DNA of 64,000 nucleotides from NCBI GenBank assembly GCA_965214035.1, contig OZ243932.1, positions 1,583,363 through 1,647,362 of the forward strand, in the 5' to 3' direction. Both the position numbers and the translations under genes were made by a program. Shown here in pieces: positions 3,795 through 36,855 of this stretch (position 1 is the stretch's first letter; each line of letters opens with the position of its first letter). The stretch is from Gammaproteobacteria bacterium. GTDB taxonomy: Bacteria; Pseudomonadota; Gammaproteobacteria; JAJDYQ01. Under the pieces are notes generated by a model that was not told the DNA's origin, did not search any database, and was given only the letters and a program-made list of their open reading frames with translations.

Positions 3795-4013
3795 GGATTT
3801 ATCCGGTAACGTAGTCACTTCATGTAACAGAGCAGTGATTTTACCAATTGATGGAGCGACCAGAGCTGCCAGTCAGTTTATAGCAACACAGTAAAAGCCA
3901 TTACCAACCATAGCCAGCCGGAGGCCTTGTGTAAAGCAGGACGGGATTCAACAGCCTCAATCTCTGTTAAACAGATCTCCTGAATCTGTTGAGCAGGAAG
4001 GCAACAGAGTGTC

Positions 4014-4064
4014 AAAAAAGCGGGGCCGGAGGTACAGCGTTCTACAAGGAGGGTTTCCGGCCCC
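4014..4064 (-). terminator. Rho-independent terminator of autotransporter copy 1
   Basis: On the minus strand the sequence reads GGGGCCGGA...TCCGGCCCC, a 9-bp GC stem, followed by GCTTTTTT. It is duplicated in copy 2. Confidence 0.7.
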
Positions 4065-4105
4065 GTAATAGCCGGCCAACAGAGGAACCGGCTGACCAAT
4101 GGAGG

Positions 4106-6305
4106 CTACCAGTATAGCCTTAATTCCGCGCCAATGCCATGATTTTGATCATTATTATTCTGCTGGCGGCGGATGGCCTTGATATCGAGTTCCGATTTCC
4201 GGCTGGACGGGTTTGACAGCAGGCGCCAGCCGAGGGTCAGGTCACGTTTGGCATCGGACGCCGACAGGCTGGCATAGGGGATGCCGGTGGCGTTGTGCAG
4301 GGCAAAGCCCCACTCGCCTTTCAGGGTCCATTGACTCGATACTTCGGCGGTTTGAGAGTTGTCTTCCTTCAACGCATCCGTCAGGGAGTCCGACAACAGC
4401 CGCTCCAGACCGCTGGCAGCCGGTGCATTGCCGTATTCCTGACGTAGACTGAACGACGGACCATGCGCCGAGTCCGGCCGCGCCTTGTAACGCAGTGAAC
4501 CGGACAGACCCCACTCCTGCCGCTCGGAAGCCTCCTGCTCCAGCAGATAGCGACCGCGCAGCTCGACGGTCAAGCCTTTGTCCGGCATCTGCCAGGACCA
4601 GGCCAGACCCATGCGCAAACGCTGTGTGTCCGCCTCGGTACCGGCCATCACCTCGGAGTCATCCGACTCAATACGGGCCAGCGTCATGTCCGAGGTCAGG
4701 CGCACAGTCAATCCGCCCTCTTCTACCGGACGCTCCAGCAGCGTGCCACGCAGACCGGCCGTGGCAGACCACTGCTCCAGATCGTGTTCCGATTCCATAC
4801 CGGTCTGTGAAGTCTGCTGCAAGTCACCCTGACCATAACTGACCGCACCCCACCGTTGCAGACGCTCGGTCAGGTCATGGCACACATACGGCAGGATAGA
4901 GGCCAGCGTGCCGGACAGCTCACCCTCATCCGATTCACCCTGCCATTCGCCATCACTGTCGCTGTAGGTCAGCGCCAGACCCAGCAGCGTCTGACCGCTG
5001 TTGTGGTCAATACCCAGCAGGGCCGTGGTCACTTCACCGTCCGTGCTGAGGCCGTCTGCACCGTCTTCATAGTCCGAATACGCCGCCCGACCCCAGAGCG
5101 AGACACCGTGCTCATCACTGAGTGTAAAGTGACTGCCACGCAGCAGAGACGGCAGCAGCTTCGGCAAGGACAGCGTGCGCGAGAGTGAATGCGGACGATC
5201 CACTGAACCGGCTCCCAACGGCTCAAGGCCCGTTGAAACAGAGTCCGCAGCCTGACCAGAGCGGGTCGCATGCAGCGCCTGACCCCGTGGCAGGCCGTGC
5301 AGGTGCCCCGACAAACCGGGCTGACTCGATGCGGTAAAACGCTCATCCAGCCCGTCCAGCATGTGCTCAATCACCGTCAGACCAAAGCGCGGCAGCCAGA
5401 GCGCCTGCGCCGCCTGCATCTCGGCCATATCGCCGCCCGTGATACGTACCTCCATGACCGCCGTAACGCCGTCATAACCACCGGTCGCCGTATGAGTCAA
5501 CTCCACTCGATCCTCGCGCAGCGCTTCGGAGGCCATCACCGTCACCGTCTGTGCCCGCTGCCAGTCCATCGAGGTGAAGGTCAGGGTGTTGTCGCCGGAG
5601 CCGTTGTCGAGGGTGATGCCGCTGGCCATGGCCGTGACGGTGACATTGGCGGCCGGTTGTGAGGTGAGTGCCACGGTGTAGCTGTCGGTGCCGCTGTTTT
5701 CCGACAGGGTCAGTGCGGTTTTGCTGAGTGTGACGCCGGTGCGGTCGTCATTGCGGATGGTGTAGGTGACACTGCCGTCAGTGGCGGAGATGATGACATC
5801 GGCGGGGGGTATCGGAGTTGCCGCCCAAACCACTGCCCACACCACTGACTGGTCGCAGGCTGACCATGACGGTTTCGTCATCCTCGAACAGGCTGTCTCC
5901 GTTGACCCGGATTTTGCGGCTGAAGGATGGGTTGTCAGGGAGTATAAGCAGATCTCTACAACCACTACTAAGACGAGGCTCTGTGTTATCCAGGAATGTG
6001 TACTGATAGTCCGCATGGCTGCCGCGCTCGGCGGTGCCACCGAGGCAAAGCTCGATATTAAAACGCTGCAGTCTGGGCGGATTCATGGTGAAGGTCACGG
6101 TGGCGGCGGTGATGTTCACCATCGGTATGTCGTCGTTGAGGATGGTGAAGGTGGTCATAGCAGTGCCAAGAGTGACACTGCCGTGTGCCTGGGTTATTTC
6201 CAGGGTGGCGTTAATGGTTTCGTTGGGTTCGGGAGTGGTGTCGCCGAATATGCCAACGCCGACGAAAGTATTGGAGAGTAAGGTGGCAGGCTGCACCGCA
6301 GCCAT
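4106..6305 (-). pseudogene. Calx-beta domain autotransporter adhesin, copy 1 (frameshifted, signal peptide deleted)
   Basis: The Calx-beta-like part is in ORF 5778-6305 (GDTTPEPNETI..TILNDD; RKIRVNGDSLFEDDETVMVSL). ORF 4106-6040 holds a further repeat (YTIRNDDRTGVTL...) and a C-terminal autotransporter beta-barrel ending in ...GIGAELRLYW. The two ORFs overlap in different frames, and the frame changes at the G6 run 5804-5809. No signal peptide follows the ATG. Confidence 0.8.
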
Positions 6306-6823
6306 TGAGCTACAGAGTGAAAAACCGGTAATTTGTTACTGGGAGGGGGGCAATGCAGCAGCGCCTGCGCTGGCACGCCGGTTGGTGCTGTTTGTTGCCG
6401 CGAGGACACGGTTTGTCGCGGCGATGATGCTGTTGCTGATCGTCGTCAGCCATTGTTCGGTTTTCATGTCGGTTGCTCCTGTCATATGTATTACCTGAAT
6501 TGCCGGTTACGGAGTCCCGCCTGCCCTGGCCGGCCAACACCTTTGTCGGGTTGAGCGGCTGATTTTGAACCTGCCTGTGCCGGATTGCAAATGGCAGCGG
6601 GGGTATTTCCGTGCGCCTTACCCGTTTTTGCATATCAAAAATACGATTGCAACCGTTTTTTTTCATCATTTTATGCCCTGGCCGGTATGATGGGCAGGAT
6701 GCGGCGGCTGTCCGGCTTCGTTCGGCATGTACGGCAGTCGCTGAAAACGGGGGATTTCCGTTCAGATTAACGCTTTTCGAGGCTGTTCGGATTGATGCAG
6801 GGCAAACCGGCCACAATTTTGTT

Positions 6824-6852
6824 TTGACGCCGGCGTATCGTGTTCGTATGAT
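6824..6852 (+). promoter_or_regulatory. Putative sigma-70 promoter of the tRNA cluster
   Basis: TTGACG (6824-6829), a 17-nt spacer, then TATGAT (6847-6852). An A/T-rich stretch lies upstream and tRNA-Pro starts at 6872. Confidence 0.55.
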
Positions 6853-6871
6853 GCTGTGCTTCGGGAAAAAT

Positions 6872-6948
6872 CGGGGTATGGCGCAGTCTGGTAGCGCATC
6901 TGCTTTGGGAGCAGAGGGTCGGGGGTTCAAATCCCTCTGCCCCGACCA
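6872..6948 (+). tRNA. tRNA-Pro (anticodon TGG)
   Basis: Hand-folded cloverleaf. Acceptor CGGGGTA/TGCCCCG, anticodon arm TCTGC-TTTGGGA-GCAGA, T-loop TTCAAAT, encoded CCA. Confidence 0.9.
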
Positions 6949-7006
6949 TTGCTGGCAGGACGGGTCGGTTGCAAACACCGGCTTTGTGCCTCATGGGTCA
7001 GTATTT

Positions 7007-7083
<77 letters not shown>

Positions 7084-7107
7084 GAGACGGGCCGGGTGGA
7101 AAGTTAT

Positions 7108-7184
7108 GGTGGGTGTAGCTCAGTTGGTAGAGCACTGGATTGTGGCTCCGGATGTCGAGGGTTCGAGTCCCTTCACTCACCCCA
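7108..7184 (+). tRNA. tRNA-His (anticodon GTG)
   Basis: The extra 5' G(-1) typical of tRNA-His is present. Anticodon arm CTGGA-TTGTGGC-TCCGG, T-loop TTCGAGT, CCA. Confidence 0.9.
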
Positions 7185-7352
7185 TATCCATGCCGGACAT
7201 GGATGAAACTTGACGGGCCGACAGGATTCCGTCAACAATCAGGCACAAGTTACAAGCCGTCAGGGCCGTTATCTGTGGTCTGTATGGTGTCAACGGCTGT
7301 TTTCTGGTGTCCTTGTAGATATATGAGCGTTATGAGCAGTCAGGGAGAAACG

Positions 7353-7437
7353 GCGAAAGTGGCGGAATTGGCAGACGCGCCGGATTTAGGTTCCGGTGCC
7401 GCAAGGCGTGAGAGTTCGAGTCTCTCCTTTCGCACCA
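7353..7437 (+). tRNA. tRNA-Leu (anticodon TAG)
   Basis: Acceptor GCGAAAG/CTTTCGC, anticodon arm CCGGA-TTTAGGT-TCCGG, long variable arm GCC-GCAA-GGC, T arm GAGAG-TTCGAGT-CTCTC, CCA. Confidence 0.9.
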
Positions 7438-7500
7438 TGTTTTGAATCGGGTATCGTTATGGCAACACAGGCTGGTATGGCAGTACAAACAGAGAACCAG

Positions 7501-8805
7501 ATGGATGTGGCGGTTGAGGTGGTGCAGGGGCTGGAGCGTCGTATGACGGTTACGGTGCCTGATCATGATATCGAGTCGAATATCAATAAAAAACTGCGTT
7601 CGATCGCTAAAACCGCCCATATGCAGGGCTTTCGCCCCGGCAGAGTGCCGTTTGGCATGGTGAAAAGACAGTATCTTGAGCAGGTGCGGGATGATGTGAT
7701 GACGGATGTTATCGCTGCTACCTGCGAGCAGGCGCTGTTGAGGGAGAATATCCGGCCGGTTGACAGGCCCGCTTTGCAGTCACGGGACTTGAGGGATGAC
7801 AGTGTGTTGCAGTATGTTGTCACTTTTGAGGTTTTTCCGGAAGTTGAGGTGCAGGGGCTGGATCGGCTGCGGGTGGAAAAGCCGGTGGTGTCCATTGACG
7901 GGGGGGATGTGGACCGTATGCTGGACAGATTGCGGCGACAGCGCACCGAGTGGCATGAGGTTGAGCGGGCAGGCCGGTCCGGTGATCGTCTTGTTGTTAC
8001 GTTTGATGGCAGGATTGACGGTGAACCGTTTGAGGGCAGTCAGGCTGAGCACATGCCTGTGGTGCTGGGTGCCAGTCTCATGCCGAATGGATTTGAGGAG
8101 AATCTTGTTGGTCTGAAAGCCGGTGATGACAAGGTGTTCGAGATCACTTTTCTTCAGGATTATCGCGGTCAGGCCGTTGCTGGCCGGACTGCCCGGTTCA
8201 GTGTCCATGCTGACTCTGTCAGTGAGCCGGAGTTGCCGGAGGTGGATGATGAGTTTGCCCGCTCCTATGGGGTTGATGAGGGAGGAGTGGAGCAACTGCG
8301 TCAGGCTGTCGAGGAGAATATGCGGCGCGAGCTGGATCAGAAGGTGCGTTCCCTGATTAAGGAGCAGATCATGGACGGGTTGCTGGAAAATAATTCGATT
8401 GAGGTTCCGAATGTGCTGGTCGAGCGGGAGATTGATCGGCTGCATGAGGTGGTCACAAACGGTGCGCCGCAGCCCGGCAGCAGTGCCCGGACGGATCTGC
8501 CCCGCGCTCCGTTTGAAGAGCGGGCGCGCCGCCGTATCCGGCTTGGCTTGTTGGTGGGCAGGCTTATACAGGCCAACGGGATCGAGTTGGATCGGGATCG
8601 GTTTGATGAGCGGGTCAGGAGCATTGCTTCGACTTATGAGGAGTCTGAGGTGGTGGAGCGCGCCTATCGTGAGAGGGAAGACTTGAGGCGGGATCTGGAG
8701 GCTGTGGTTATGGAGGATCGGCTTGTCGATGTGCTGCTTGAGCAGATTGAGGTCGCGGAGGTGACAAAGGATTTTTTCGATGTCATTGAACCGCCTGCGG
8801 CTTGA
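7501..8805 (+). CDS. tig: Trigger factor
   Basis: MDVAVEVVQGLERRMTVTVPDHDIE aligns with the E. coli Tig N-terminus (MQVSVETTQGLGRRVTITI). The position before clpP-clpX-lon is conserved. ATGs at 7459 and 7477 are alternative starts. The ORF-track start at 7396 lies inside tRNA-Leu and is rejected. Confidence 0.9.
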   Translation: MDVAVEVVQGLERRMTVTVPDHDIESNINKKLRSIAKTAHMQGFRPGRVPFGMVKRQYLEQVRDDVMTDVIAATCEQALLRENIRPVDRPALQSRDLRDDSVLQYVVTFEVFPEVEVQGLDRLRVEKPVVSIDGGDVDRMLDRLRRQRTEWHEVERAGRSGDRLVVTFDGRIDGEPFEGSQAEHMPVVLGASLMPNGFEENLVGLKAGDDKVFEITFLQDYRGQAVAGRTARFSVHADSVSEPELPEVDDEFARSYGVDEGGVEQLRQAVEENMRRELDQKVRSLIKEQIMDGLLENNSIEVPNVLVEREIDRLHEVVTNGAPQPGSSARTDLPRAPFEERARRRIRLGLLVGRLIQANGIELDRDRFDERVRSIASTYEESEVVERAYREREDLRRDLEAVVMEDRLVDVLLEQIEVAEVTKDFFDVIEPPAA

Positions 8806-8863
8806 GTGGATTTTTTCGGGGTCAGTCCGGTTATTTTGAGTGATATGGTCAGAGGTGGCTGTT

Positions 8864-9529
8864 ATGAGTGATGGCAGAGGAGAAGGTTTGAGTCACGCGC
8901 CGGGGGCGTCGCAGATCAGAAATCTGAATCTGGTTCCTGTCGTGGTTGAGCAGACTTCCAGAGGTGAGCGTTCATATGATATCTATTCCCGCCTGCTCAA
9001 GGAGCGCGTGGTTTTTATGGTCGGACCGGTTGAGGATTATTCGGCCAATCTGATCGTGGCTCAGTTGTTGTTTCTGGAAGCAGACAATCCGGATAAGGAT
9101 ATTCATTTTTACATTAATTCTCCCGGCGGTTCGATTTCATCAGGGCTGGCAATTTATGATACCATGCAGTTTATCAAGCCTGATGTCAGCACCATGTGTA
9201 TCGGTCAGGCAGCCAGCATGGGGGCGGTTCTGTTGGCCGGTGGTGCGGCCGGCAAGCGCTATTCTCTACCGCATTCGCGGGTGATGCTGCATCAGCCTCT
9301 GGGAGGATTTCAGGGGCAGGCTTCCGATTTTGACATTCACGCCAGAGAAATTCTGCTGGCACGTGAGCGATTGAACAGGATTCTGGCCGATCATACCGGC
9401 CAGAAGCTGGATAAAATTCAACATGATACCGACCGCGATAATTTTATGAGCGCTGAAGAGGCGAAGGATTATGGCCTGATCGATCAGGTGATGCTGGATC
9501 GTCAGGGCAAGGCCGGCGGGAAGAGTTGA
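8864..9529 (+). CDS. clpP: ATP-dependent Clp protease proteolytic subunit
   Basis: [25 protein letters not shown]...[18 protein letters not shown]...GQAASMGA...MLHQP. AGAGGTGG precedes ATG 8864. Confidence 0.95.
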
Positions 9530-9684
9530 TTGTCGTTTCCTGCCCCGTTTGTGGTAGGATGACCGTTATCGCTACAGTAACGGCGCATTGAGCCCGGCCC
9601 GGATGATGCTGGTTGTACGGTGTTCCGGGTTGTTGAGCTTTTAGTGTTCGGTGGTCCCTGGTTTAAGGTTTATGGCAGGTTCGC

Positions 9685-10974
9685 ATGAGTAAAAAATCAA
9701 AAGACGGCAGTCAGCTGATGTATTGTTCGTTTTGCGGCAAGAGTCAGCATGAGGTGCGCAAGCTGGTGGCCGGTCCGTCTGTGTTCATTTGTGATGAGTG
9801 CGTGGGGCTTTGCAATGACATTATCCGCGAAGAGATGGGGGAAGAGGCCGCCAGTGTTGGTCGGCTGCCCAGTCCCCATGAAATCAAGGCCGGTCTTGAT
9901 GATTATGTGATCGGTCAGGAGCGTGCCAAGAAGGTGCTTTCCGTTGCTGTTTACAATCATTATAAGCGGCTCGAATCCAAAGATAGCGGCAGTGAGGGTG
10001 ATGAGGATATTGAGTTGAGCAAAAGCAATATCCTGCTTATCGGGCCGACCGGCTCCGGTAAAACCCTGCTCGCCGAAAGTCTGGCCAGGATGCTGGATGT
10101 GCCCTTTACCATGGCCGATGCTACCACTTTGACCGAGGCCGGTTATGTGGGTGAGGATGTCGAAAATATTATCCATAAGTTGCTGCAGAAGTGTGATTAT
10201 GATGTCAGCAAGGCCGAGACGGGCATTGTCTATATCGATGAGATCGACAAAATATCCCGCAAATCCGAGAATCCTTCGATTACCCGCGATGTATCGGGCG
10301 AAGGCGTTCAGCAGGCGCTGTTGAAGCTGGTCGAGGGTACTGTTGCGTCCATACCACCGCAGGGTGGGCGAAAGCATCCGCAGCAGGAATTCCTGCATGT
10401 CAATACGGCCAATATCCTGTTTATCTGCGGCGGGGCATTCGCTGGCCTCGACAAGATGATCCGTCATCGTTCTGAAAAAACCGGCATAGGCTTTTCAGCC
10501 GAGGTCAAGACCAAAGATGAAAGGCATGATTTTGCTGAAATAGTCGCGGCGGTTGAGCCGGAGGATCTGATCGGCTATGGATTGATACCTGAATTTATAG
10601 GGCGCCTGCCGATGGTGGCGATCTTGCAGGAGCTTGATGAGGATGCACTGGTTGCTATCCTCACCGAACCGAAAAATGCGATTATCCGCCAGTATGGCAA
10701 GTTGTTCGAGATGGAGGGTGTGGAAATTGATTTCAGGGAAGATTCATTGCGTACCGTTGCCAGAAAGGCGATGGAACGCAAGACCGGCGCACGTGGTTTG
10801 AGAACGATCCTTGAGAATGTTTTGCTGGACACCATGTATGACCTGCCGACATTGGAAAATGTCCGCAAAGTGGTGGTGGATGAGGCTGTGATTGAAGGCG
10901 ACTCCCCTCCCTATATCATGTATGAAAGTGTGAAGAAGTCTGGAAAGCGTGTTTCTTCCGGTGCCAAAAGCTAG
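9685..10974 (+). CDS. clpX: ATP-dependent Clp protease ATP-binding subunit ClpX
   Basis: N-terminal zinc finger [11 protein letters not shown]...FICDEC, Walker A GPTGSGKT, Walker B YIDEIDK. Confidence 0.95.
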
Positions 10975-11043
10975 GCGGGCTGTGAATCGGTTCGATATGG
11001 TGCGCACGGGTTTGTTCGAAGTTGTCTGTACAGGTAAGGCTTT

Positions 11044-13500
11044 ATGAAGAAAAAACGTATATCGGAAAAAGAAGATGTGTTGATCGAGCCGGAAGCCGAT
11101 GAAAATGTTGTACCCGGTGTTCCGGTGCTACCGCTTCGTGATGTGGTTGTCTATCCGCACATGGTGATTCCGCTGTTTGTCGGGCGGGATAAATCTATCC
11201 GGGCACTTGAGGTTGCGATGACCAGTAACAAGCAGATTTTACTGGTGGCACAAAAAAACGCGGATGTTGATGAGCCGGATGTTGATGATATTTACAGTAT
11301 CGGCACGCTGGCTACGATATTGCAGTTGCTGAAGCTGCCTGATGGCACGGTTAAGGTGCTGGTGGAGGGCCGCCAGCGTGCCGGTGCCCTTGAATATCTG
11401 ACAACAGACAGTTTCTTTTCGGTGCGAGTGCAATTTGAGGATGAGATTGACACGGAAGACGAGCGTGAAGGAGAGATTCTGATTCGTTCGATTACGAATC
11501 TGTTTGATCAATATGTCAAGCTCAACAAGAAAGTTCCGCCGGAGGTGCTGACTTCGTTGTCCGGCATTGAGGAGCCGGGACGGCTCGCTGATACCATCGC
11601 CGCTCATATGTCACTCAAACTGGAGGAAAAGCAGCAGGTCCTGGAAGCCCTCGATGTCTATGCGCGCCTGGAGTACCTGATGTCAATGATTGAGGGTGAA
11701 ATTGATATGCTTCAGGTGGAAAAGCGCATACGGGGGCGCGTTAAGCAGCAGATGGAGAAAAGCCAGCGTGATTATTATCTGAATGAGCAAATGAAGGCGA
11801 TCCAGAAGGAGCTGGGTGACGCGGAGGATTCCCTTGGTGAGGTCGAGGGGCTGGAACAGAAAATTAAAAAGGCCCGTATGAGCAAGGAGGCCGAGGAAAA
11901 GGCAACCTCTGAACTGAAGAAGTTGAAGATGATGCCGCCAATGTCGGCAGAAGCAACCGTCGTCCGCAATTATATTGATCATCTGGTCGGTTTTCCGTGG
12001 CGCAAGAAAACCAAGGTTAATGAAAATATCGGCAAGGCGATGGAGGTGCTTGACACCGATCACTATGGACTGGAAAAGGTTAAAGAGCGCATCCTTGAAT
12101 ATCTGGCTGTGCAGCAGCGTGTCAAGAAGCTGAAGGGGCCGATACTTTGCCTGGTCGGCCCGCCGGGAGTTGGTAAAACCTCTCTGGGCAAGTCTATTGC
12201 CAAGGCCACAAACCGGAAATTTATTCGTATGTCTCTTGGTGGTATGCGTGATGAAGCCGAAATTCGCGGTCATCGAAGAACGTATATTGGTTCCATGCCC
12301 GGCAAGATTGTCCAGAATCTGTCCAAGGTTAAAACGAGAAACCCGCTTTTCATGCTCGATGAAATAGACAAGATGTCCATGGATTTTCGTGGTGACCCTT
12401 CTTCCGCCCTGCTCGAAGTGCTGGATCCTGAGCAGAATAATGCCTTCAATGATCACTATCTGGAAGTAGATATTGATTTGTCGGACACGATGTTTATCGC
12501 CACTTCCAATACGTTGAAGTTCCCCCCCCCATTGCTGGATCGCATGGAGGTCATCCGTCTGGCCGGCTATACCGAGGATGAAAAGCAAAGCATTGCCGAG
12601 CGCTACCTTATACCGAAACAAATCAAGGCAAATGGCCTTGAAAAGGATGAGATAGAGATAGCCGGAGAGTCTGTGCTGGATACTATTCGCTATTACACGC
12701 GGGAAGCCGGTGTGCGCAATCTGGAACGTGAATTCAGCAAGATCTGCCGTAAGGTCGTTAAGGAATTAATTACAGAACCGCGTAGTGAAAAGCTTGTCGT
12801 AACAGCGGATATGCTGGAAAAGTATCTGGGAGTCAGAAAGTTTCGCTATGGCGAAGCGGAAGACTCCAACCGGGTCGGGCAGGTTACGGGTCTGGCATGG
12901 ACAGAGGTCGGCGGTGAGCTGTTGCATATAGAGTCTGCTGTTTTGCCGGGAAAGGGGAAGTTTGTTAATACCGGTCAGCTTGGTGATGTCATGCAGGAAT
13001 CCATACAGGCCGCCATGACAGTTGTCAGGGCGCGCTCCGACAGTCTGGGCATAAAAAATGATTTTTACCAGGAACATGATGTTCATATCCATGTGCCGGA
13101 AGGGGCTACACCGAAAGACGGGCCGAGCGCCGGAATCGGAATGTGTATCGCCATAGTCTCCGCTTTGACCGGCATACCCGCCAGAGCCGATGTTGCCATG
13201 ACCGGCGAGATTACCCTGCGGGGCGAGGTGTTGCCTATCGGCGGCCTGAAGGAGAAACTGCTGGCAGCATCCCGTGGGGGCATTAAAACTGTCCTGATCC
13301 CTGATGAAAACCGGAAAGACCTGAAGGAGATCGCGGATAACATTAAGGGACATCTTAATATCAGACCCGTCAAATGGATAGATCAGGTGCTTGAGACGGC
13401 ACTTGAACATTTGCCCCTGCCTATCGATAAGGCAGAGGCACCAGTTGGTAAATCAAAAGGCAAAAAAACGTCAAAAAGCAGTCAGGTTACTGCACATTAA
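11044..13500 (+). CDS. lon: Lon protease
   Basis: 818 aa. [20 protein letters not shown] (LON N-domain), GPPGVGKTS, and the protease site PKDGPSAG. Confidence 0.95.
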
Positions 13501-13546
13501 TCGTTTCCTTGGTGCCTGAATTTCTGTACAATACGGGCGCGTGCTT

Positions 13547-13580
13547 GCTTCATGCAGAATAATGCTTCATGCAGAATAAT
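13547..13580. repeat. Perfect 17-bp tandem duplication (GCTTCATGCAGAATAAT x2)
   Basis: Read directly in the lon-hupB intergenic region. Confidence 0.9.
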
Positions 13581-13653
13581 GGTTTCAGGCAAGGGTAGTA
13601 CGAATGCCTTGAGGCTCACTTTTTAATATCCACTGAATAATTGGGGAATTTTT

Positions 13654-13977: not shown

Positions 13978-14053
13978 GGGCGCTTAGCTCAGTTGGGAGA
14001 GCATCGCCCTTACAAGGCGAGGGTCGCAGGTTCGAGCCCTGCAGCGCCCACCA
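13978..14053 (+). tRNA. tRNA-Val (anticodon TAC)
   Basis: Acceptor GGGCGCT/AGCGCCC, anticodon arm TCGCC-CTTACAA-GGCGA, T arm GCAGG-TTCGAGC-CCTGC, CCA. Confidence 0.9.
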
Positions 14054-14069
14054 TTTTTACGGAATATCC

Positions 14070-14146
14070 GGAGCGGTAGTTCAGTTGGTTAGAATACCGG
14101 CCTGTCACGCCGGGGGTCGCGGGTTCGAGTCCCGTCCGCTCCGCCA
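14070..14146 (+). tRNA. tRNA-Asp (anticodon GTC)
   Basis: Acceptor GGAGCGG/CCGCTCC, anticodon arm CCGGC-CTGTCAC-GCCGG, T-loop TTCGAGT, CCA. Confidence 0.9.
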
Positions 14147-26401: not shown

Positions 26402-27457
26402 CTATATCGCGACCAATAATTGTGCGCTGAAATAATCATTTTGATCCGTCCAGACTTTTTTGACCTGAAAGCCGGACTGCCCGGCGATCTTTTCAAACTC
26501 CTTTAATGAATACTTGTATGAACTTTCGGTATGGATACTGTCACCGGTTGCCAGAGAAAATTTCTTTTGGCTGATCGAGAATGCTTGATTGGTGATGCTT
26601 ACCAGATGCATCTCAACGCGGCCTTTAGACTCATTATAAAAGGCTTCATGCTGAAATTTTTCCACATCAATATCGGCACCAAGCTCACGGTTAATCCGAT
26701 GCAGGAGATTCAGGTTGAATGCGGCGGTGACTCCTGCCTTATCGTTGTAGGCACTATGCAACACCTGTTCATCTTTTTTCAAATCAACCCCAATCAGCAA
26801 CTGACCACCGATACCGACAAGCCCGTGAATCTGGCGCATAAAGGCGATTGCTTCATCAGTGTGGAAGTTGCCGATGCTGGAACCGGGATAAAATGCGACG
26901 ACAGAATCAGTGCTGCAATGCGGAGGCAGAGTTAATTCGCTGGAAAAGTCCGCACATACAGCATGTACCTCAAGCCATGGATAGTCGTCAGCCAGACTCT
27001 GGGTTGCTTCGAGCAAAAACTCCTTGGAGATATCAACACCAAGGTACTGATTGGGACGAAATGACTCCAACAAAACCCTGATTTTTTCACTGCTGCCGCT
27101 GCCCAGTTCAACGAGAATGCACTCTTCCCCTATATGATGGGCAATATCATCCACATTATCCCTGAAAATACCGATCTCGGTGCGGGCTGGATAATACTCC
27201 GGCAGTTCACAGATTTTATCGAAAAGCACGGAACCCTGCTGATCGTAAAGATATTTGGGAGAAATTGCCTTTGGAGTACAACTCAGGCCAGACAGTACCT
27301 CGCCCAGAAAGTCACTGTCCGTGACGGAATAGTCGTGAAACTCAACGGCATTATTGGATTCAGTCGCAATGCTGTCAGTGTCTGCGGGTGAAAAATTCAT
27401 AAAATTAAAGGGTTTTTTCAGTTTATTTCCGATGATCATGGTCATGGTAACATACAA
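26402..27457 (-). CDS. EgtD-like SAM-dependent (histidine N-alpha-type) methyltransferase family protein
   Basis: PKYLYDQQGSVLFDKICELPEYYPARTE, ELGSGSSEKIRVLLE and YLGVDISKEFL match the EgtD/TIGR03438-type family from memory. The start is uncertain; an internal ATG at 27400 gives MNFSPAD.... Confidence 0.65.
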   Translation of the reverse strand: MYVTMTMIIGNKLKKPFNFMNFSPADTDSIATESNNAVEFHDYSVTDSDFLGEVLSGLSCTPKAISPKYLYDQQGSVLFDKICELPEYYPARTEIGIFRDNVDDIAHHIGEECILVELGSGSSEKIRVLLESFRPNQYLGVDISKEFLLEATQSLADDYPWLEVHAVCADFSSELTLPPHCSTDSVVAFYPGSSIGNFHTDEAIAFMRQIHGLVGIGGQLLIGVDLKKDEQVLHSAYNDKAGVTAAFNLNLLHRINRELGADIDVEKFQHEAFYNESKGRVEMHLVSITNQAFSISQKKFSLATGDSIHTESSYKYSLKEFEKIAGQSGFQVKKVWTDQNDYFSAQLLVAI

Positions 27458-27537
27458 CAGCTTTCGCTGCCACTTGAACCTGATGAGGCGGGCGTTACTC
27501 GTTTGGAAGAAATCATGTCTGGTGCTGCAACTGCCAC

Positions 27538-28275
27538 CTATGCCAAACGCAGAAACTGTCTGACAGATACAGGTTCAGAGCACCATAACCGGGCAGAACT
27601 TTCTGGAGTGCAATATCGACAAAGCCAGGACTGAAAATCCTCAAGGGTGATTTCTCTTGCCCCCAGCGAGAATAAATGTGCCGAGCTGACCTGACAGTCA
27701 ACCAGATGAAAATCATGATTCAGCAGATGACGAACCAGACAGGCGAGAGCCACCTTTGAGCTGTCCCGAACTCTGGAAAACATGGATTCCCCAAAAAATA
27801 TCCGGCCGACGACAATGCCATACAATCCGCCGACCAGTTCCCCATCCTGCCAAATCTCGGCAGAATGGGCATGCTTCAAGTCGTGCAGGTGCTGATATGC
27901 CGCCATCATATCGGCGGTTATCCAAGTATCGGAGTCGCCACTGCGACCTGCCGCACAACTTTCAATGACACTGGCAAAATCACGGTCAAGCGAAAAAACA
28001 AATCCGGCATTCCGGCAGGTTTTTCTCAGGCTGCGGCTCATTTTGAACTCGTCAGGCAACAGAACACAGCGCGGCGATGGAGACCACCACATAATAGACT
28101 GTCCTTCGCAGTACCATGGGAATATGCCTTTTTTATAGGCGGCCAACAGGCGTCCCGGAGCCAGATCGCCACCCAGACACAAAAGGCCATCGGGATATTT
28201 CAGGGCAGCCTCTGCCGGAGGAAAATTATCGGGGGCAGAACCCGGTTCAATCCAGAACAATGAAGGCCGACTCAT
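27538..28275 (-). CDS. aat: Leucyl/phenylalanyl-tRNA--protein transferase
   Basis: GGDLAPGRLLAAYKKGIFPW...WWSP.PR...FFGESMFS. The start overlaps the stop of the upstream gene by 4 nt. Confidence 0.9.
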   Translation of the reverse strand: MSRPSLFWIEPGSAPDNFPPAEAALKYPDGLLCLGGDLAPGRLLAAYKKGIFPWYCEGQSIMWWSPSPRCVLLPDEFKMSRSLRKTCRNAGFVFSLDRDFASVIESCAAGRSGDSDTWITADMMAAYQHLHDLKHAHSAEIWQDGELVGGLYGIVVGRIFFGESMFSRVRDSSKVALACLVRHLLNHDFHLVDCQVSSAHLFSLGAREITLEDFQSWLCRYCTPESSARLWCSEPVSVRQFLRLA

Positions 28276-29438: not shown

Positions 29439-29458
29439 GAGTAATCGGCCATTAACCC

Positions 29459-30061
29459 TTACAGTGCCTCATGCTCCTGAAGCAGGGCATGCAGACTCTC
29501 GGCCATTTTACGGTACCCCCTGGCATTCGGATGGATTGTATCCGACTTATTGGATGGGAACTGCAAGATGTCGGCGAGCGCATCGATTTCTATCGGCACG
29601 CCGGTTTCCCCGGCGACCGACGCATAAAAATCTGCCGGACTCAGTATCAATGTCGGGTTAGGGACAGCCATCATCACCACCTCGGCTCCTTTTGCGCGAG
29701 CCAGGGCAATCATCTTCCTGAGATTATCGGCGGCCTGCTCCAGACTCTTTTTACGCAGAATATCATTACCACCATGAATCAGAATCAAAAGGTCGGGCCT
29801 GTGTGCATCCAGCAGACCGGGCAGACGGGCCAGTCCCTGGGCGGACAGCTCGCCCGACACCCCGGCATTGACAACCTTTCTGCCCGACAACTCCTGAAGA
29901 ACGGCCGGATAGCTTTTATCGAGAGTCGTACCGGTACCAAAAGTCAGACTATCGCCGAAAGCCAGTATGACGGCATCACCGGACAATGGAGTGAGAGAAT
30001 CTGACGAACCGCCACAGCCCACCAGCAACGAAGCCAGAAACAACAAAGCGAATTTTTTCAT
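29459..30061 (-). CDS. SGNH/GDSL hydrolase lipoprotein (arylesterase/TesA-like)
   Basis: Lipobox LLVGC, block I FGDSLTFG, GGNDILR, and a C-terminal D..HP. Confidence 0.75.
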   Translation of the reverse strand: MKKFALLFLASLLVGCGGSSDSLTPLSGDAVILAFGDSLTFGTGTTLDKSYPAVLQELSGRKVVNAGVSGELSAQGLARLPGLLDAHRPDLLILIHGGNDILRKKSLEQAADNLRKMIALARAKGAEVVMMAVPNPTLILSPADFYASVAGETGVPIEIDALADILQFPSNKSDTIHPNARGYRKMAESLHALLQEHEAL

Positions 30062-30063
30062 GG

Positions 30064-31194
30064 TTACATTAACAACCGATTGAGGATAGATTCATAAATG
30101 CGGCTCAGGGTATCCAGGTCTTCCACGGCGACACACTCATCAACCTGATGAATGGTAGCGTTCAACGGGCCAAGTTCAAGCACCTGCGCACCGGTTGGTG
30201 CAATGAAGCGCCCGTCCGAAGTGCCACCGGCCGTTGACAGCCGGGTATCATGCCCCGTGATCTGGCGGATAGCCTGTTGGCTGGCCGTCACCAGCTCGCC
30301 AGCGGCCGTCAGAAACGGCATACCGGACAATGTCCAGCGGGTTTCATAAACCATGTCATGGCGATCAAAAATTTCGTGGACACGTGCTTTCAGAATATCC
30401 GGCGACTGCGCAGTTGAAAAACGGAAATTAAAGGCAACCCTGCACTGACCGGGGATTACATTACCGGCACCCGTGCCGCTACTGATGTTTGAAACCTGCA
30501 ATGTTGTGGGCGGAAAATCATCATTACCCTGGTCCCATTCCGTTATCGTCAACTCGGCAAGCGCCGGGGCGAGACAATGTATGGGATTGCGTGCCAGATG
30601 CGGATAAGCAACATGCCCCTGCACACCGTTCACGGCCAGTTCACAACTGAGCGACCCGCGCCGACCATTTTTCACAACATCACCCACCCTGTCCGAGCTG
30701 CTTGGTTCACCCACCAGGCACCAGGTAATTTTTTCATTTCGAGCTTCCAGTGCCTCGACCACTCGGGTCGTACCATTCACTGCGGTCCCCTCCTCATCGC
30801 TGGTCATTAAAAACGCCAGAGAACCCTGGAAAGTACCGCCGTTTCCCAGCAAAAACCGTTCGCAGGCCGTAGTGAACGCGGCCACACTGCCCTTCATATC
30901 CGCGCTGCCACGCCCATACAGCAAACCATTACGGACCTCCGGCTTGAAAGGATCACTCTGCCAGCCATCGACCGGGCCGGCCGGCACAACATCCGTATGA
31001 CCAGCGAAGCACAAAACAGGATCGTCACTGCCCAGCCGTGCCCAGAGATTATCGACCTCACCAAACCGCAGATGCTCGCAGACAAAACCAAACCCCTCCA
31101 GCCTGTCTGCCAACAGCCCCTGACAACCCTGGTCATCGGGTGTTACCGAAGGGCGCGACACCAGCTCCATGGCCAGCTCAAGCGTTGCCGACAT
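30064..31194 (-). CDS. dapE: Succinyl-diaminopimelate desuccinylase
   Basis: [24 protein letters not shown]...GHTDVVP...SDEEG. GGAGAG precedes ATG 31194. Confidence 0.9.
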
Positions 31195-31232
31195 GAACCT
31201 CTCCTGCCCGACAAATGCCGTCATAAAGCCTG

Positions 31233-32057
31233 TTAAATATCCCGCAGCAGCTCATTAATACCGACTCTGCCACGGGTTTTCTCATCCACCTGCTTGACGA
31301 TGACTGCGCAATACAACGAATAACGGCCGTCATCGGAAGGCAGATTGCCGGACACAACAACCGAACCGGGCGGCACATGACCATAACTGATACTGCCAGT
31401 CTCACGGTTATAGATTTTGGTGCTCTGCCCGATATAAACCCCCATGGAAATAACCGAACCCTCGCCGACGACAACACCCTCAACGATTTCCGAGCGTGCA
31501 CCGATAAAGCAATCATCCTCGATCACAGTCGGTGCCGCCTGCACAGGTTCGAGCACCCCGCCGATACCAACGCCACCGGACAAATGGACATTCCTGCCGA
31601 TTTGCGCACAGGAACCGACCGTTGCCCAGGTATCGACCATGGTGCCGCAATCGACGTAGGCACCGATATTGACATAAGAAGGCATCAGCACCGTACCGGA
31701 ACCGATATGGCAACCCTTGCGGGCCATTGCCGGAGGCACTACGCGCACACCGCCATCGCGGAAATCACGCGAATGATGGCCGGCAAACCGGGAAGGCACC
31801 TTATCCCAGTAATTGGTAAAGCCGCCATTGATAAACTCATTATCCTCCAGACGGAAATACAACAGCACAGCCTTTTTCAGCCACTCATTGACAACCCACT
31901 CACCATCCTTCTTTTCGGCAACACGGGCCTGACCGGAGTCCAGCAACTCAATAGCCGTCATCACGGCATCGCGGGTCAACGTATCGGCAGAACGTGGAGT
32001 AATATCGGCGCGGTTTTCAAAGGCCGCGGTAATAACAGGGGCAATATCATCAGACAT
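31233..32057 (-). CDS. dapD: 2,3,4,5-tetrahydropyridine-2,6-dicarboxylate N-succinyltransferase
   Basis: Hexapeptide-repeat C-terminus ([38 protein letters not shown]) and dapD-dapE adjacency. ATG 32057 was chosen. Confidence 0.9.
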
Positions 32058-32148
32058 GGCTTTCTCTTGATGGACACCGGACAAATTCAGAACACGGCAC
32101 AGTATAACGCCTTTCGCGTTCGGATGTTCACAACAGGCAGCGACTCTA

Positions 32149-32157
32149 TGCTACAAT
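32149..32157 (+). promoter_or_regulatory. Possible extended -10 promoter element (TGcTACAAT)
   Basis: ATGCTACAAT lies about 150 nt upstream of the 32307 ORF. A near-identical ATGCTATAGT is at 36855-36864. Confidence 0.3.
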
Positions 32158-32306
32158 GCCGGCCGCGTTGCCGGCGATACGCAGGATGGGCAGCAGACTG
32201 TCACTCCCGTCGCTCGCCGTCCCCCCGCGCCGCTGGTGGCACCTGACCACGACCGACAGATTGCGCAAGCAACAATGGAGACACAACAATACCAGCCGAC
32301 CAACCC

Positions 32307-34046
32307 ATGAAGGCAACCACACACAAGCCCCCCCAGCCATCCCCCGAACCGACGCCTGTCCGCCCCCCTGCAGCATTCACACGCCGCGACATGGCCGCCG
32401 CTATCGGCCTCGCGCTGCTCATTGCAGTCAGCTATTTCCCGGCCCTGACAGCCGGCTTCATCTGGGACGACATCATCTTCACCGAAGAGCCGGTGATACA
32501 CCGCTGGTCAGGGCTGTGGAACATCTGGTTCTCACCGTCCGACATCCGCAAGGAAGGCCACTACTGGCCGATTGTCTATACCACCTTCTGGCTTGAACAC
32601 AAACTGTGGGGACACGCACCGCTTGGCTACCACCTTGTGAACATACTGCTGCACATCATCAACACCCTGCTGATATGGCGACTGATGAAGCGGCTCAACG
32701 TACCCGCTGCCCTGGCCATTGCCGCCCTGTTTGCCGTTCACCCCCTGCATGTAGAATCGGTAGCATGGATCATCGAACGCAAGGACCTGCTCTCGGCACT
32801 GTTTTATCTGGCGGCGATACACACCTGGCTGCGCCACAACGAAGCACCACACCCGCTGCGCTATGGTGCGGCGCTGCTCTTGTTCATCGCCGGCCTGCTG
32901 TCAAAATCAATCGTCATTACCCTGCCGGCCGCGCTGCTGATATGGCACTGGTGGGCACAGGGGCGCATCCACCGCATCGACATACTGCGGCTGCTACCAT
33001 TTTTTATTATCGGGCTGGCCATCACAGCCGCCGACCTGACCTACTACAACTGGCGCGAACCACTCGACCTCGACTACTCGATCATCGAACGAATCCTGAT
33101 AGCGGCGCGCGTACTATGGTTCTATGCCGGCAAACTGCTGTGGCCGGATGACCTGATCATCATCTACCCGCTATGGGAAATACAGGCCGGCGACCTGACC
33201 GGCTGGCTGTATGTTGCGGCGGCGGCCGTGCTGCTGGCAGTGCTGCTATACCGCCCATGGGGCCGCGCCCCGCTGGCCGGCATCCTGTTCTACACCATCA
33301 CCCTGTCACCGGTACTGGGATTCATAGACTACGGCTTCATGCAATTCTCACTGGTGGCCGACCGCTTTCAATATCTGGCCGGTATCGGCCTGATAGCAAT
33401 ACTGACCGGCACCGCCGCCCGCGGCATCAGCCGCCTGAACGAGACAGGACAGCGCACAGCGACCGGCGCATTCATGGTGATACTGGCAATACTCGGCACA
33501 CTCACCTGGCAGCAATCGAAGCTGTACCGTGACGACCTCACCTTCTTCAGCTACATTCTCACCCACAACCCGCAGGCACGCGATGCCAGTCTCAATCTCG
33601 GTGCCGCACTGCTGCGTGCAGGCCGCCTGCAAGAAGGCCTCGCCGCCAGCCAGACCGCACTCCGGCAGCGCCCCGACTCGGCCACCGCCAACGCCCACCT
33701 CGGTTATGCACTGCTGCTCATGCAGCGCCTGGACGAAGCCGCCGTCAGACTTACCCGTGCGCTGGAACTCGACCCCCTCAATGAACAGGCACTCGACTAC
33801 CTCGCCAACATACGCTTCAACCAGCAGCGATACGAAGAAGCGCACACCCTGTACCGCACCCTGCTGCAAGTGCGCCCCGCAAGCGCCCAGACCCACCTGA
33901 ACCTGGGTGCCGCGCTGTACTACCTCGGCCGCCGCGAGCAGGCCCTGGCCAGCTTTGAACAGGCACTGTCCCTCGATCCGCACCTGCCGGCCGCCCAGGA
34001 AAGCACCGCCCGACTGCGCCGCAGCCTCAACAAAAAAAGCCGCTGA
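32307..34046 (+). CDS. TMTC-like GT-C family membrane protein with C-terminal TPR repeats (paralog 1)
   Basis: 579 aa. It has a polytopic N-terminal domain with GFIWDD in the first loop and FAVHPLHVESVAWIIERKDLLSALFYL, followed by TPR repeats. It is strongly similar to the 38159-40699 protein over the membrane domain. Visibly GC-rich. Confidence 0.75.
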   Translation: MKATTHKPPQPSPEPTPVRPPAAFTRRDMAAAIGLALLIAVSYFPALTAGFIWDDIIFTEEPVIHRWSGLWNIWFSPSDIRKEGHYWPIVYTTFWLEHKLWGHAPLGYHLVNILLHIINTLLIWRLMKRLNVPAALAIAALFAVHPLHVESVAWIIERKDLLSALFYLAAIHTWLRHNEAPHPLRYGAALLLFIAGLLSKSIVITLPAALLIWHWWAQGRIHRIDILRLLPFFIIGLAITAADLTYYNWREPLDLDYSIIERILIAARVLWFYAGKLLWPDDLIIIYPLWEIQAGDLTGWLYVAAAAVLLAVLLYRPWGRAPLAGILFYTITLSPVLGFIDYGFMQFSLVADRFQYLAGIGLIAILTGTAARGISRLNETGQRTATGAFMVILAILGTLTWQQSKLYRDDLTFFSYILTHNPQARDASLNLGAALLRAGRLQEGLAASQTALRQRPDSATANAHLGYALLLMQRLDEAAVRLTRALELDPLNEQALDYLANIRFNQQRYEEAHTLYRTLLQVRPASAQTHLNLGAALYYLGRREQALASFEQALSLDPHLPAAQESTARLRRSLNKKSR

Positions 34047-34122
34047 CCCGCTAAAAATGCACAATGGACAGCAAAATTTGCGCAAATCCGGCCTGAAGTC
34101 CGGTTTTTCACTCTGTAGCTCA

Positions 34123-36638
34123 ATGGCTGCGGTGCAGCCTGCCTACCCTGCTGCTCTGTCTGCCGCTGCTGCTCGGATTTTCCGGCGCGGTACAGGCGCA
34201 GGCTATCCTGTCCATCGAGGGGCCCGACGATACCAGTGAGGGAAACTCCGGCTCGCAGGACCTCACCTACACGGTCAGCCTGTCGCAGCAGATAACGGGC
34301 AGAGTGTTATGGCGAGTCTGTTTCAGTGGTACGGCAACACGAGATACTACAGGGCGTATCACGCCTCCGCTGGGCTCTGATTATGTGGCCCGATTCGCTG
34401 GAAATCCATTCGGACTAAATTGTACAGACAATGCAGGATTAGGCTCCGCTATTTCTTCCACCTTACTCTCCAATACTTTCGTCGGCGTTGGCATATTCGG
34501 CGACACCACTCCCGAACCCAACGAAACCATTACCGCCACCCTGGAAATAACCCAGGCACACGGCAGTGTCACTCTTGGCACTGCTATGACCACCTTCACC
34601 ATCCTCAACGACGACATACCGATGGTGAACATCACCGCCGCCACCGTGACCTTCACCATGAATCCGCCCAGACTGCAGCGTTTTAATATCGAGCTTTGCC
34701 TCGGTGGCACCGCCGAGCGCGGCAGCCATGCGGACTATCAGTACACATTCCTGGATAACACAGAGCCTCGTCTTAGTAGTGGTTGTAGAGATCTGCTTAT
34801 ACTCCCTGACAATCCATCCTTCAGCCGCAAAATCCGGGTCAACGGAGACAGCCTGTTCGAGGATGACGAAACCGTCATGGTCAGCCTGCGACCAGTCAGT
34901 GGTGTGGGCAGTGGTTTGGGCGGCAACTCCGATACCCCCCGCCGATGTCATCATCTCCGCCACTGACGGCAGTGTCACCTACACCATCCGCAATGACGAC
35001 CGCACCGGCGTCACACTCAGCAAAACCGCACTGACCCTGTCGGAAAACAGCGGCACCGACAGCTACACCGTGGCACTCACCTCACAACCGGCCGCCAATG
35101 TCACCGTCACGGCCATGGCCAGCGGCATCACCCTCGACAACGGCTCCGGCGGCAACACCCTGACCTTCACCTCGATGGACTGGCAGCGGGCACAGACGGT
35201 GACGGTGATGGACTCCGAAGCGCTGCGCGAGGACCGAGTGGAGTTGACTCATATGGCGACCGGTGGTTATGACGGCGTTACGGCGGTCATGGAGGTACGT
35301 ATCACGGGCGGCGATATGGCCGAGATGCAGGCGGCGCAGGCGCTCTGGCTGCCGCGCTTTGGTCTGACGGTGATTGAGCACATGCTGGACGGGCTGGATG
35401 AGCGTTTTACCGCATCGAGTCAGCCCGGTTTGTCGGGGCACCTGCACGGCCTGCCACGGGGTCAGGCGCTGCATGCGACCCGCTCTGGTCAGGCTGCGGA
35501 CTCTGTTTCAACGGGCCTTGAGCCGTTGGGAGCCGGTTCAGTGGATCGTCCGCATTCACTCTCGCGCACGCTGTCCTTGCCGAAGCTGCTGCCGTCTCTG
35601 CTGCGTGGCAGTCACTTTACACTCAGTGATGAGCACGGTGTCTCGCTCTGGGGTCGGGCGGCGTATTCGGGCTATGAAGACGGTGCAGACGGCCTCAGCA
35701 CGGACGGTGAAGTGACCACGGCCCTGCTGGGTATTGACCACAACAGCGGTCAGACGCTGCTGGGTCTGGCGCTGACCTACAGCGACAGTGATGGCGAATG
35801 GCAGGGTGAATCGGATGAGGGTGAGCTGTCCGGCACGCTGGCCTCTATCCTGCCGTATGTGCGCCATGACCTGACCGAGCGTCTGCAACGGTGGGGTGCG
35901 GTCAGTTATGGTCAGGGTGACTTGCAGCAGACTTCACAGACCGGTATGGAATCGGAACACGATCTGGAGCAGTGGTCTGCCACGGCCGGTCTGCGTGGCA
36001 CGCTGCTGGAGCGTCCGGTAGAAGAGGGCGGCTTGACTGTGCGCCTGACCTCGGACATGACGCTGGCCCGTATTGAGTCGGATGACTCCGAGGTGATGGC
36101 CGGTACCGAGGCGGACACACAGCGTTTGCGCATGGGTCTGGCCTGGTCCTGGCAGATGCTGGACAAAGGCTTGACCGTCGAGCTGCGCGGTCGCTATCTG
36201 CTGGAGCAGGAGGCTTCCGAGCGGCAGGAGTGGGGTCTGTCCGGTTCACTGCGTTACAAGGCGCGGCCGGACTCGGCGCATGGTCCGTCGTTCAGTCTGC
36301 GTCAGGAATACGGCAATGCACCGGCTGCCAGCGGTCTGGAGCGGCTGTTGTCGGACTCCCTGACGGATGCGTTGAAGGAAGACAACTCTCAAACCGCCGA
36401 AGTATCGAGTCAATGGACCCTGAAAGGCGAGTGGGGCTTTGCCCTGCACAACGCCACCGGCATCCCCTATGCCAGCCTGTCGGCGTCCGATGCCAAACGT
36501 GACCTGACCCTCGGCTGACGCCTGCTGTCAAACCCGTCCGGCCGGAAATCGGAACTCGATATCAAGGCCATCCGCCGCCAGCAGAATAATAATGATCAAA
36601 ATCATGGCATTGGCGCGGAATTAAGGCTATACTGGTAG
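34123..36638 (+). pseudogene. Calx-beta domain autotransporter adhesin, copy 2 (frame problems plus premature stop)
   Basis: A good signal peptide (LPTLLLCLPLLLGFSGAVQA/QA) is in a different frame from the only ATG (34123). The frameshift at C6 34935-34940 is the same as in copy 1. TGA at 36516-36518 replaces the TGG of copy 1 and removes the last 40 aa of the beta-barrel. Confidence 0.8.
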
Positions 36639-36679
36639 CCTCCATTGGTCAGCCGGTTCCTCTGTTGGCCGGCTATTAC

Positions 36680-36730
36680 GGGGCCGGAAACCCTCCTTGT
36701 ATAACGCTGTACCTCCGGCCCCGCTTTTTT
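36680..36730 (+). terminator. Rho-independent terminator of autotransporter copy 2
   Basis: GGGGCCGGA (36680-88) ... TCCGGCCCC (36714-22) followed by GCTTTTTT. Confidence 0.7.
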
Positions 36731-36855
36731 GACACTTAAACGCTTTTCCACGGTAAAGCCCGCACTCCTGCACCCCAATGATAAACCGAGTGCCTCATCC
36801 CGACTGCATGACATGAGTTAGCTTGTGCAGGGTATGGCAACACAGCATCAGGTTA

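Follow-up and report, generated by a model that had tools for sequence, protein, structure and literature searches.

What keeps two long, inverted copies of a surface-protein gene almost identical to each other, with 27.8 kb of housekeeping genes between them? The question is raised by a stretch of 64,000 nucleotides (the window) from a Gammaproteobacteria bacterium (contig OZ243932.1 of assembly GCA_965214035.1, positions 1,583,363 to 1,647,362), in which a decayed autotransporter gene with Calx-beta-like repeats lies at each end of such a block, in inverse orientation. A preliminary description of the window had left two explanations side by side, ongoing gene conversion or a duplication of very recent date. 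When a close relative is compared, the evidence points to the former, and we consider it likely that the locus holds an old inverted duplication which was later homogenised and is now a neutrally maintained pair of pseudogenes.

Anatomy of the Inverted Repeat

A repeat search revealed one long inverted pair in the window, 2282 nt that are 99% complementary (4008-6289 and 34455-36736). Past a gap, BLAST added 47-48 nt to this match, which places the arm ends at 6328 and 34100. Copy 1 of the decayed Calx-beta/autotransporter gene (4008-6328, minus strand) is thus 2321 nt in length and copy 2 (34100-36736, plus strand) is 2637 nt. Exact gapped comparison found 14 substitutions over the 2321 shared nt (99.40% identity) and a single 316-nt indel, at positions 34142/34144 to 34457/34459 of copy 2, its placement being ambiguous by 2 nt. 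The coordinates, the "about a dozen" differences and the 316-bp indel that had been read earlier from translations and flanks were all borne out by this comparison. The differences are evenly spread along the repeat, the longest perfect run between the copies is 416 nt, and a match of such length and identity is far beyond chance. Ten of the coding differences are non-synonymous and four synonymous (n = 14, ungapped arm), as expected under neutral drift.

The inner end of the repeat lies 23 nt 5' of an ATG codon (6305-6303 in copy 1, 34123-34125 in copy 2), and the outer end lies just beyond a terminator-like hairpin and a six-U run. Folding placed this hairpin, which has a 10-bp GC-rich stem, on the plus strand at 36679-36723 (to 36730 with the U run, 36725-36730, just inside the outer repeat end), with its mirror in copy 1 at ~4014-4065; a simple terminator scan had missed it owing to its long loop. 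The repeat had been described as the whole autotransporter gene plus its terminator. The hairpin (36679-36730) was indeed found within it, but the gene is a pseudogene in both copies, as detailed below.

Beyond the outer end of copy 1 is an exonuclease III-like gene (called xthA here; 3018-3818, minus strand), and beyond that of copy 2 are a GT2/GtrA glycosyltransferase gene and the second of two PMT2-TPR paralogues (37011-40699, plus strand). These outer neighbours are downstream of, and co-directional with, the copies they adjoin. On the inner side, copy 1 faces tRNA-Pro and copy 2 follows the first PMT2-TPR gene.

Probable Gene Conversion in Two Lineages

The closest relative is a short-read metagenome-assembled genome (MAG), JAJDYQ01 (isolate jk18x34bins.42), whose sister assemblies are GCA_022827445.1, two ENA "KELL22" assemblies and one Logan assembly. 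A genome-contig search with the 644-aa autotransporter open reading frame (ORF) matched no relative, and relatives were found through the flanking genes; the block-end regions of JAJDYQ01 and of a more distant genome, OY759969.1, were recovered with the PMT2-TPR protein as query. Identical-protein look-ups for the window xthA, and for the autotransporter paralogue P0003 introduced below, returned nothing on record and brought up no second assembly of the strain. Over 4.4 to 12.5 kb, the relative's flanks are 94.0%, 94.3%, 95.0% and 95.2% identical to those of the window.

In the relative, both xthA (contig L002) and GT2-GtrA (contig L082) are preceded by an autotransporter 3' end. Both contigs match the window repeat exactly to its outer end, and in both the match is lost at the mirrored site 4429 / 36315, beyond which the two copies of the relative hold the same REP (repetitive extragenic palindromic)-like insertion and the two copies of the window do not. 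Autotransporter remnants thus occupy matching outer junctions in the two genomes and stop at one and the same repeat boundary, which indicates that the duplication is older than the split of the genomes.

The outermost 421 nt of the repeat carry the evidence on how the copies have evolved since. There, the window copies are 99.3% identical to each other and the relative's copies 94.2%, whereas all four window-relative pairs are 86.4% identical; the unique flanks next to these 421 nt are 93% identical between the window and the relative. Of the informative sites, 42 group the copies by genome and 0 by locus. Reciprocal crossovers within the repeat cannot part the 421 nt at the outer edge from the xthA or the GT2-GtrA flank, and for this reason non-reciprocal transfer is the only explanation for a 42:0 pattern at this place. 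The near-identity of the copies appears to stem from gene conversion (concerted evolution) that acted independently in both lineages. Of the two explanations first proposed, conversion stands, and recent duplication does not fit the shared outer junctions or the split of 42 sites versus 0.

The inner junctions of the relative were recovered in part. On one side (contigs L263-265), the PMT2-TPR orthologue is followed by 336 nt that are absent in the window, comprising an autotransporter leader and its ribosome-binding site, ATG and C17 run. Next comes the autotransporter 5' end, 79% identical to copy 2, in which the 316-nt stretch is present. Contigs L103 and L267 cover the tRNA-Pro side: they run colinear with the window and end at the position of the C-run, and four assemblies of the relative all stop at or before it. 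A 28,089-bp contig of the relative has, judging from the coordinates, the size that would be expected of the unique block between two repeats.

Several features of these contigs were noted in passing. The REP-like element (L002:175-504; L082:1-205), whose translations include VIPAKAGIQ and SFLRKQESK, is accompanied by 11 tandem copies of a 20-nt unit, AGCCAGGGATGACGGGGCGC; no copy of the element is found in the 64-kb window. The relative's autotransporter ORF after PMT2-TPR (L263:12128-13300) is open for at least 391 codons. Its C17 run, near L263 12262-12278, lies within codons (PPPPP) and upstream of the signal peptide, several short-read contigs end there, and it may be a slipped-strand contingency tract. 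At the corresponding place (6341-6350), copy 1 of the window has only CCCCCCTCCC.

Decay of the Repeated Gene

In translation, the repeated unit shows Calx-beta-like repeats and a linker between a signal peptide and a C-terminal beta-barrel, the last residues of which are ...ELRLYW. The window autotransporter ORFs gave no significant Pfam or NCBIfam match, and the passenger gave weak Calx-beta matches. The C-terminal 400 residues are 69-71% identical to three paralogue fragments in the same 2,513,604-bp genome (P0003, P0004 and P0006), which carry the PF03797 autotransporter beta-domain (E = 2.7e-13 for P0003). The window copies have neither a PF03797 match nor an uninterrupted ORF running from a start codon with a signal peptide, as a type Va autotransporter would.

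Two lesions are common to both copies. One is a C6 run with a frameshift (5804-5809, minus strand, in copy 1; 34935-34940, plus strand, in copy 2), at which one C fewer would restore ...NSDTPADVIISATDG... in copy 1. The other is a 39-codon deletion in the beta-barrel, between WSWQM[P/L]D and KGLTVE (~36159-36170, plus strand, with its mirror at ~4574-4585 in copy 1); the missing 39 residues are present in 6/6 aligned homologues (alignment columns 730-768).

Other lesions are private to one copy. The 316-nt stretch, found in copy 2 only (34144-34459, plus strand), encodes the hydrophobic core of the signal peptide with its AQA cleavage site, and an N-terminal portion of the first Calx-beta domain. 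The difference is a deletion in copy 1, with 2-3 nt of microhomology and a length that is not a multiple of 3; the stretch is contained in the relative's orthologue (L263). Copy 1 has thereby lost its signal peptide along with the beginning of its first Calx-beta domain; it retains a full C-terminus (...ELRLYW, stop codon 4106-4108), with an aromatic last residue. Copy 2 keeps the signal-peptide region but has no leader and no in-frame ATG, GTG or TTG, and a TGG>TGA nonsense codon (36516-36518, plus strand), found in copy 2 only, removes its last 40 residues, including the terminal aromatic one. Missing from copy 2 is the 336-nt leader stretch of the relative (autotransporter leader, start codon and C17 run), which copy 2 has lost in a deletion bounded by the short direct repeat CCGGTTTTTCA / CCGGTTGTTCG.

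We propose that the ancestor of the window genome and the relative duplicated a Calx-beta autotransporter gene in inverted orientation, and that the copies have since then been homogenised repeatedly by non-reciprocal homologous recombination, probably through RecA-type repair of double-strand breaks with the other copy as template. The last homogenisation in the window lineage would have come after the C6 frameshift and the barrel deletion, or have spread them, and would have preceded the private deletions and the nonsense codon. The gene would then have been dead already when the copies were last homogenised, and the independent decay of both would be continuing. The pair appears to be a neutrally maintained inverted repeat and no functional device.

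Surface proteins of this family differ greatly in size, from 3629 aa in OY759969.1 to remnants of ~800-900 codons here, alongside the truncated P0003, P0004 and P0006. This suggests that the autotransporter family is in reductive decay.

Origin of the Pair

OY759969.1 is a complete genome of 2.57 Mb with ~78% nucleotide identity. Its minus strand holds infA-egtD-ate-aat-FemAB-GDSL-dapE-dapD-dapC, after which come PMT2-TPR (plus strand), two ORFs, a single Calx-beta autotransporter gene of 3629 aa (plus strand; L266:14689-21779 + L104:1-9105), tRNA-Pro/Arg/His/Leu, tig, clpPX and lon. No autotransporter gene stands beside xthA or GT2-GtrA in this genome, and those two are 1.5 Mb apart. Because the adjacency of PMT2-TPR and a following autotransporter gene is found in OY759969.1 as well, copy 2, which lies downstream of PMT2-TPR, probably occupies the original locus. 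The convergent purA / infA...dapE-dapD junction of the window recurs in an outgroup contig (L203) and is therefore probably ancestral, with OY759969.1 having been rearranged.

On grounds of parsimony only, a single inversion with duplication could speculatively have given rise to all four window junctions. The starting order would have been GT2(-) / tRNA..purA(+) / infA..dapD(-) / PMT2-TPR(+) / autotransporter(+) / xthA(+), an order that was found in no genome. We rejected the possibility that the OY759969.1 order is derived from that of the window through recombination between autotransporter copies, as such recombination preserves the contacts of each flank with the 5' or 3' end of the gene.

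Alternative Explanations

A very recent duplication, in which the gene was copied into the xthA/tRNA-Pro gap in this lineage only, less than ~1% divergence ago and with no conversion, would account for the 99.40% identity and the even spread of the 14 differences, and it agrees with a repeat that barely exceeds the gene (from 23 nt before the ATG, 6305-6303, to just past the hairpin). We consider it very unlikely. The relative, 5-7% diverged in the flanks, has the autotransporter at both outer junctions with the same end base, its two copies share an insertion that is absent from the window, and the 42 versus 0 sites would need two independent duplications into identical sites. An assembly artefact, either one real copy duplicated in inverted form or a mis-oriented block, has in its favour that the source is a MAG-type single contig and that assemblers err on the orientation between inverted repeats when reads do not span the repeat. 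We regard it as highly improbable. The copies differ by 14 substitutions, by the 316-bp indel and by the 336-nt leader missing from copy 2, they have four different unique flanks, and the independent short-read assemblies of the relative show three of the junctions, and the fourth up to the leader. Duplication by the assembler is ruled out by these private lesions, distinct flanks and independent assemblies, evidence that bears on duplication and not on the orientation of the block.

The pair might also be thought to work as a variation system, in which adhesin cassettes switch by homopolymer slippage plus recombination or inversion and owe their likeness to selection. Further fragments of autotransporter paralogues, at least three in number (P0003, P0004 and P0006), are present in the genome, the relative's 5' ORF is open over at least 391 codons with an in-codon C17 run, the window frameshift falls in a C-run, and the copies evolve in concert in both genomes. 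We nevertheless find such a system quite unlikely, as the shared loss of two barrel strands and the shared frameshift mean that no crossover rebuilds an intact gene, copy 1 is without a signal peptide, copy 2 is without a start codon and its last 40 residues, the 10:4 ratio of non-synonymous to synonymous changes fits neutrality, and there is no invertase gene nearby. A working phase-variation switch is unlikely for the same reason, that no recombinant of the two copies would be intact. To the idea that the repeats are the footprint of a mobile element, bounding a composite-transposon-like or tRNA-targeted island, we give almost no weight. Inverted copies around a segment do mimic the product of intramolecular replicative transposition, and copy 1 abuts a tRNA cluster, which had been pointed to at first as a hot spot for insertion. 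However, the bracketed genes are core genes, and their internal order is kept in OY759969.1 and partly in an outgroup. Pfam/NCBIfam annotation of the ORFs in the block and its flanks yielded no gene for an integrase, a transposase or an invertase, upholding an earlier remark that no integrase or transposase was visible; no search aimed at direct target repeats was made. Integrases target the 3' ends of tRNA genes; copy 1 is on the 5' side of tRNA-Pro, and the hot-spot suggestion was dropped on this ground and for want of an integrase or transposase. A site-specific invertible switch (an invertase system or shufflon) was also rejected, as there is no recombinase gene and the repeats are stretches of gene sequence 2.3 kb long, unlike the short sites of such switches.

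A conversion-homogenised pseudogene pair remains our preferred explanation, and the following points weigh against it. The analysis covered assembled sequence, in which neither ongoing conversion nor inversion was observed directly. The collections contain a single close relative, which is a fragmented short-read MAG, and its full autotransporter copy on the tRNA side is extrapolated from a junction that its contigs cover up to the C-run and no further. A sequencing error in a homopolymer, made twice, could in principle account for the C6 frameshift. PF03797 is not matched by the window ORF even at E ≤ 10, and the assignment of the gene to the autotransporters depends on its 69-71% identity to paralogues that do match. 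Finally, further, unexplained rearrangements separate the window from OY759969.1, in which the autotransporter 3' end lies beside tRNA-Pro.

Orientation of the Block

The preliminary description noted that inverted repeats of this kind are substrates for RecA-mediated inversion, which is sound, established knowledge, as the tufA/tufB pair illustrates (PMC5485169, PMC6735719). Sharing 2321 nt, of which as many as 416 match perfectly in one run, the two copies offer ample substrate for recombination, and flipping of the block is thus to be expected at some frequency. By analogy with the tuf pair, in which up to half of such events come with a crossover, the block has probably flipped in the past and can probably flip again. 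The short-read assemblies of the relatives break at the repeats. GC skew was found to track the gene strand (in the window and in the OY759969.1 loci), and at four-fold sites it is noisy, with strand as a confounder. Pooled skew, +0.04 inside versus -0.07 outside the block, gave a hint of opposite replication-type skew, but it is gene-dependent and strand-confounded and is not relied on. One weak argument for the present isomer is that only in this orientation is the cluster of PMT2-TPR, autotransporter gene, GT2-GtrA and second PMT2-TPR co-directional.

In the window, these four genes form one plus-strand cluster (GT2/GtrA, 37011-38159; second PMT2-TPR, 38159-40699). The two PMT2-TPR paralogues are 71-74% identical to each other in nucleotide sequence (repeat family D1). 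The company of PMT2-TPR and GT2/GtrA might mean that the autotransporter passenger is, or was, glycosylated. Another MAG, RHO3_bin_14 (contig L087, 3394-8917), has an autotransporter-like gene of 27% identity 330 nt upstream of GT2-GtrA-PMT2.

Comparison with Known Systems

The tufA and tufB genes of Salmonella enterica are 1185 nt in length, inversely oriented and different at 12 positions; their conversion is RecA-dependent, and at most half of the recombination events come with inversion (PMC5485169, PMC6735719). The window pair resembles them in being inverse copies of ~1-2 kb on one chromosome with about a dozen scattered differences (14 in 2321 nt here), and in a likeness that would be kept by non-reciprocal homologous recombination able to invert the intervening DNA. 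Unlike the pair described here, the tuf genes are essential, highly expressed, under purifying selection and 760 kb apart across the origin; the window copies are pseudogenes 27.8 kb apart, their homogenisation would be neutral, and RecA dependence and inversion were observed for the tuf pair only. More generally, concerted evolution of prokaryotic paralogues is recognised where the paralogues of one genome resemble each other more closely than they do their orthologues in other genomes (PMC6053082), and the 42 versus 0 informative sites follow that pattern. The genes of that study are conserved and functional and have evolved in concert over very long times, whereas here a decaying surface-protein gene and a species-level split, at ~5-7% flank divergence, are concerned.

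Among the bab/sab genes of Helicobacter, gene conversion between paralogues for outer-membrane adhesins generates functional diversity. As in those families, multi-copy surface-protein genes here recombine between loci and have 5' homopolymer tracts (C17 in the relative); unlike in those families, an intact gene cannot be obtained from the two copies, however they are combined. Inversions flanked by inverted duplications arise from staggered breaks in eukaryotes and from intramolecular replicative transposition in bacteria. The arrangement of copy, inverted segment and inverted copy is of the same kind, and one event would fit all four junctions; in contrast to replicative transposition, there is no transposase here, and no genome in the ancestral state was found. 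With the type Va autotransporters (PF03797, Calx-beta passenger), the window copies share 69-71% identity to PF03797 paralogues and, in copy 1, an aromatic end. They differ from working members in being frameshifted, in lacking 39 barrel residues, and in having lost the signal peptide or the start codon.

The phenomenon is a known one with an ordinary mechanism, of which this inverted pair is a fresh instance, and current understanding is unchanged by it. It offers a clean natural case in which conversion would keep the copies of a dead gene near-identical across a speciation event, indicating that inverted repeats can be homogenised without any selection on the product. The assembled orientation of a 28-kb block of core genes is not to be taken for granted, which calls for caution in synteny and strand-bias analyses of this genome and makes the locus a candidate for measuring inversion frequency in long-read metagenomes. 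The locus is also a record of a large adhesin family undergoing reductive decay in an uncultured lineage.

A more far-reaching proposal, which we consider unlikely, is that the autotransporters of this clade constitute a contingency-type adhesin system with homopolymer tracts and that recombination between them drives chromosome architecture, with both isomers of the 27.8-kb block coexisting. Were this true, flipping of a block with six tRNA genes, tig-clpPX-lon, hfq and mutL would switch genes between head-on and co-directional transcription, with measurable consequences. The database neighbours of the autotransporter family come largely from sponge metagenomes.

Genes of the Block and Its Flanks

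The bracketed block (6329-34099) comprises 27,771 bp of housekeeping genes. Its plus strand has tRNA-Pro/Arg/His/Leu, tig, clpP, clpX, lon, hupB, tRNA-Val/Asp and ppiD, continuing with mutL (intact), miaA, hfq, hflX, hflK, hflC, hisZ and purA. On the minus strand are infA, egtD, aat, a FemAB-like gene, a GDSL esterase gene, dapE and dapD, after which the first PMT2-TPR glycosyltransferase gene (32307-34046, plus strand) closes the block. NCBIfam matches were obtained for tig, clpP, clpX, lon, ppiD, mutL, miaA, hflX, hflK, hflC, hisZ, purA, aat, dapE, dapD and egtD; hupB, hfq and infA were identified by reading the ORF translations. All genes that had been named for the block were found in it, but its tRNA genes number six and not four, as tRNA-Val and tRNA-Asp, between hupB and ppiD (13978-14146), had been overlooked. 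The Rfam scan found seven tRNAs only and no other RNA family.

The unique inner-left flank, from copy 1 to tRNA-Pro (6329-6871, minus strand), has an interrupted C-run (6341-6350) and a 43-codon ORF. The inner-right flank (34047-34099, plus strand) is short, and the repeat boundary there falls inside the terminator hairpin of PMT2-TPR. Within the block, egtD (histidine N-alpha-methyltransferase) adjoins aat (26402-28275), with no egtB nearby. Two genes that OY759969.1 has at the matching places, ate and dapC (L266:1976-4392 and 8364-9569), are absent from the window and the close relative. The 43-codon ORF between copy 1 and tRNA-Pro (MKTEQWLTT...; 6336-6467, minus strand) may be a real small gene, an ORF that arose by chance, or what was once an N-terminal extension of the autotransporter; it has an AGGAG ribosome-binding site and is conserved at ~95% in the tRNA-side contig of the relative.

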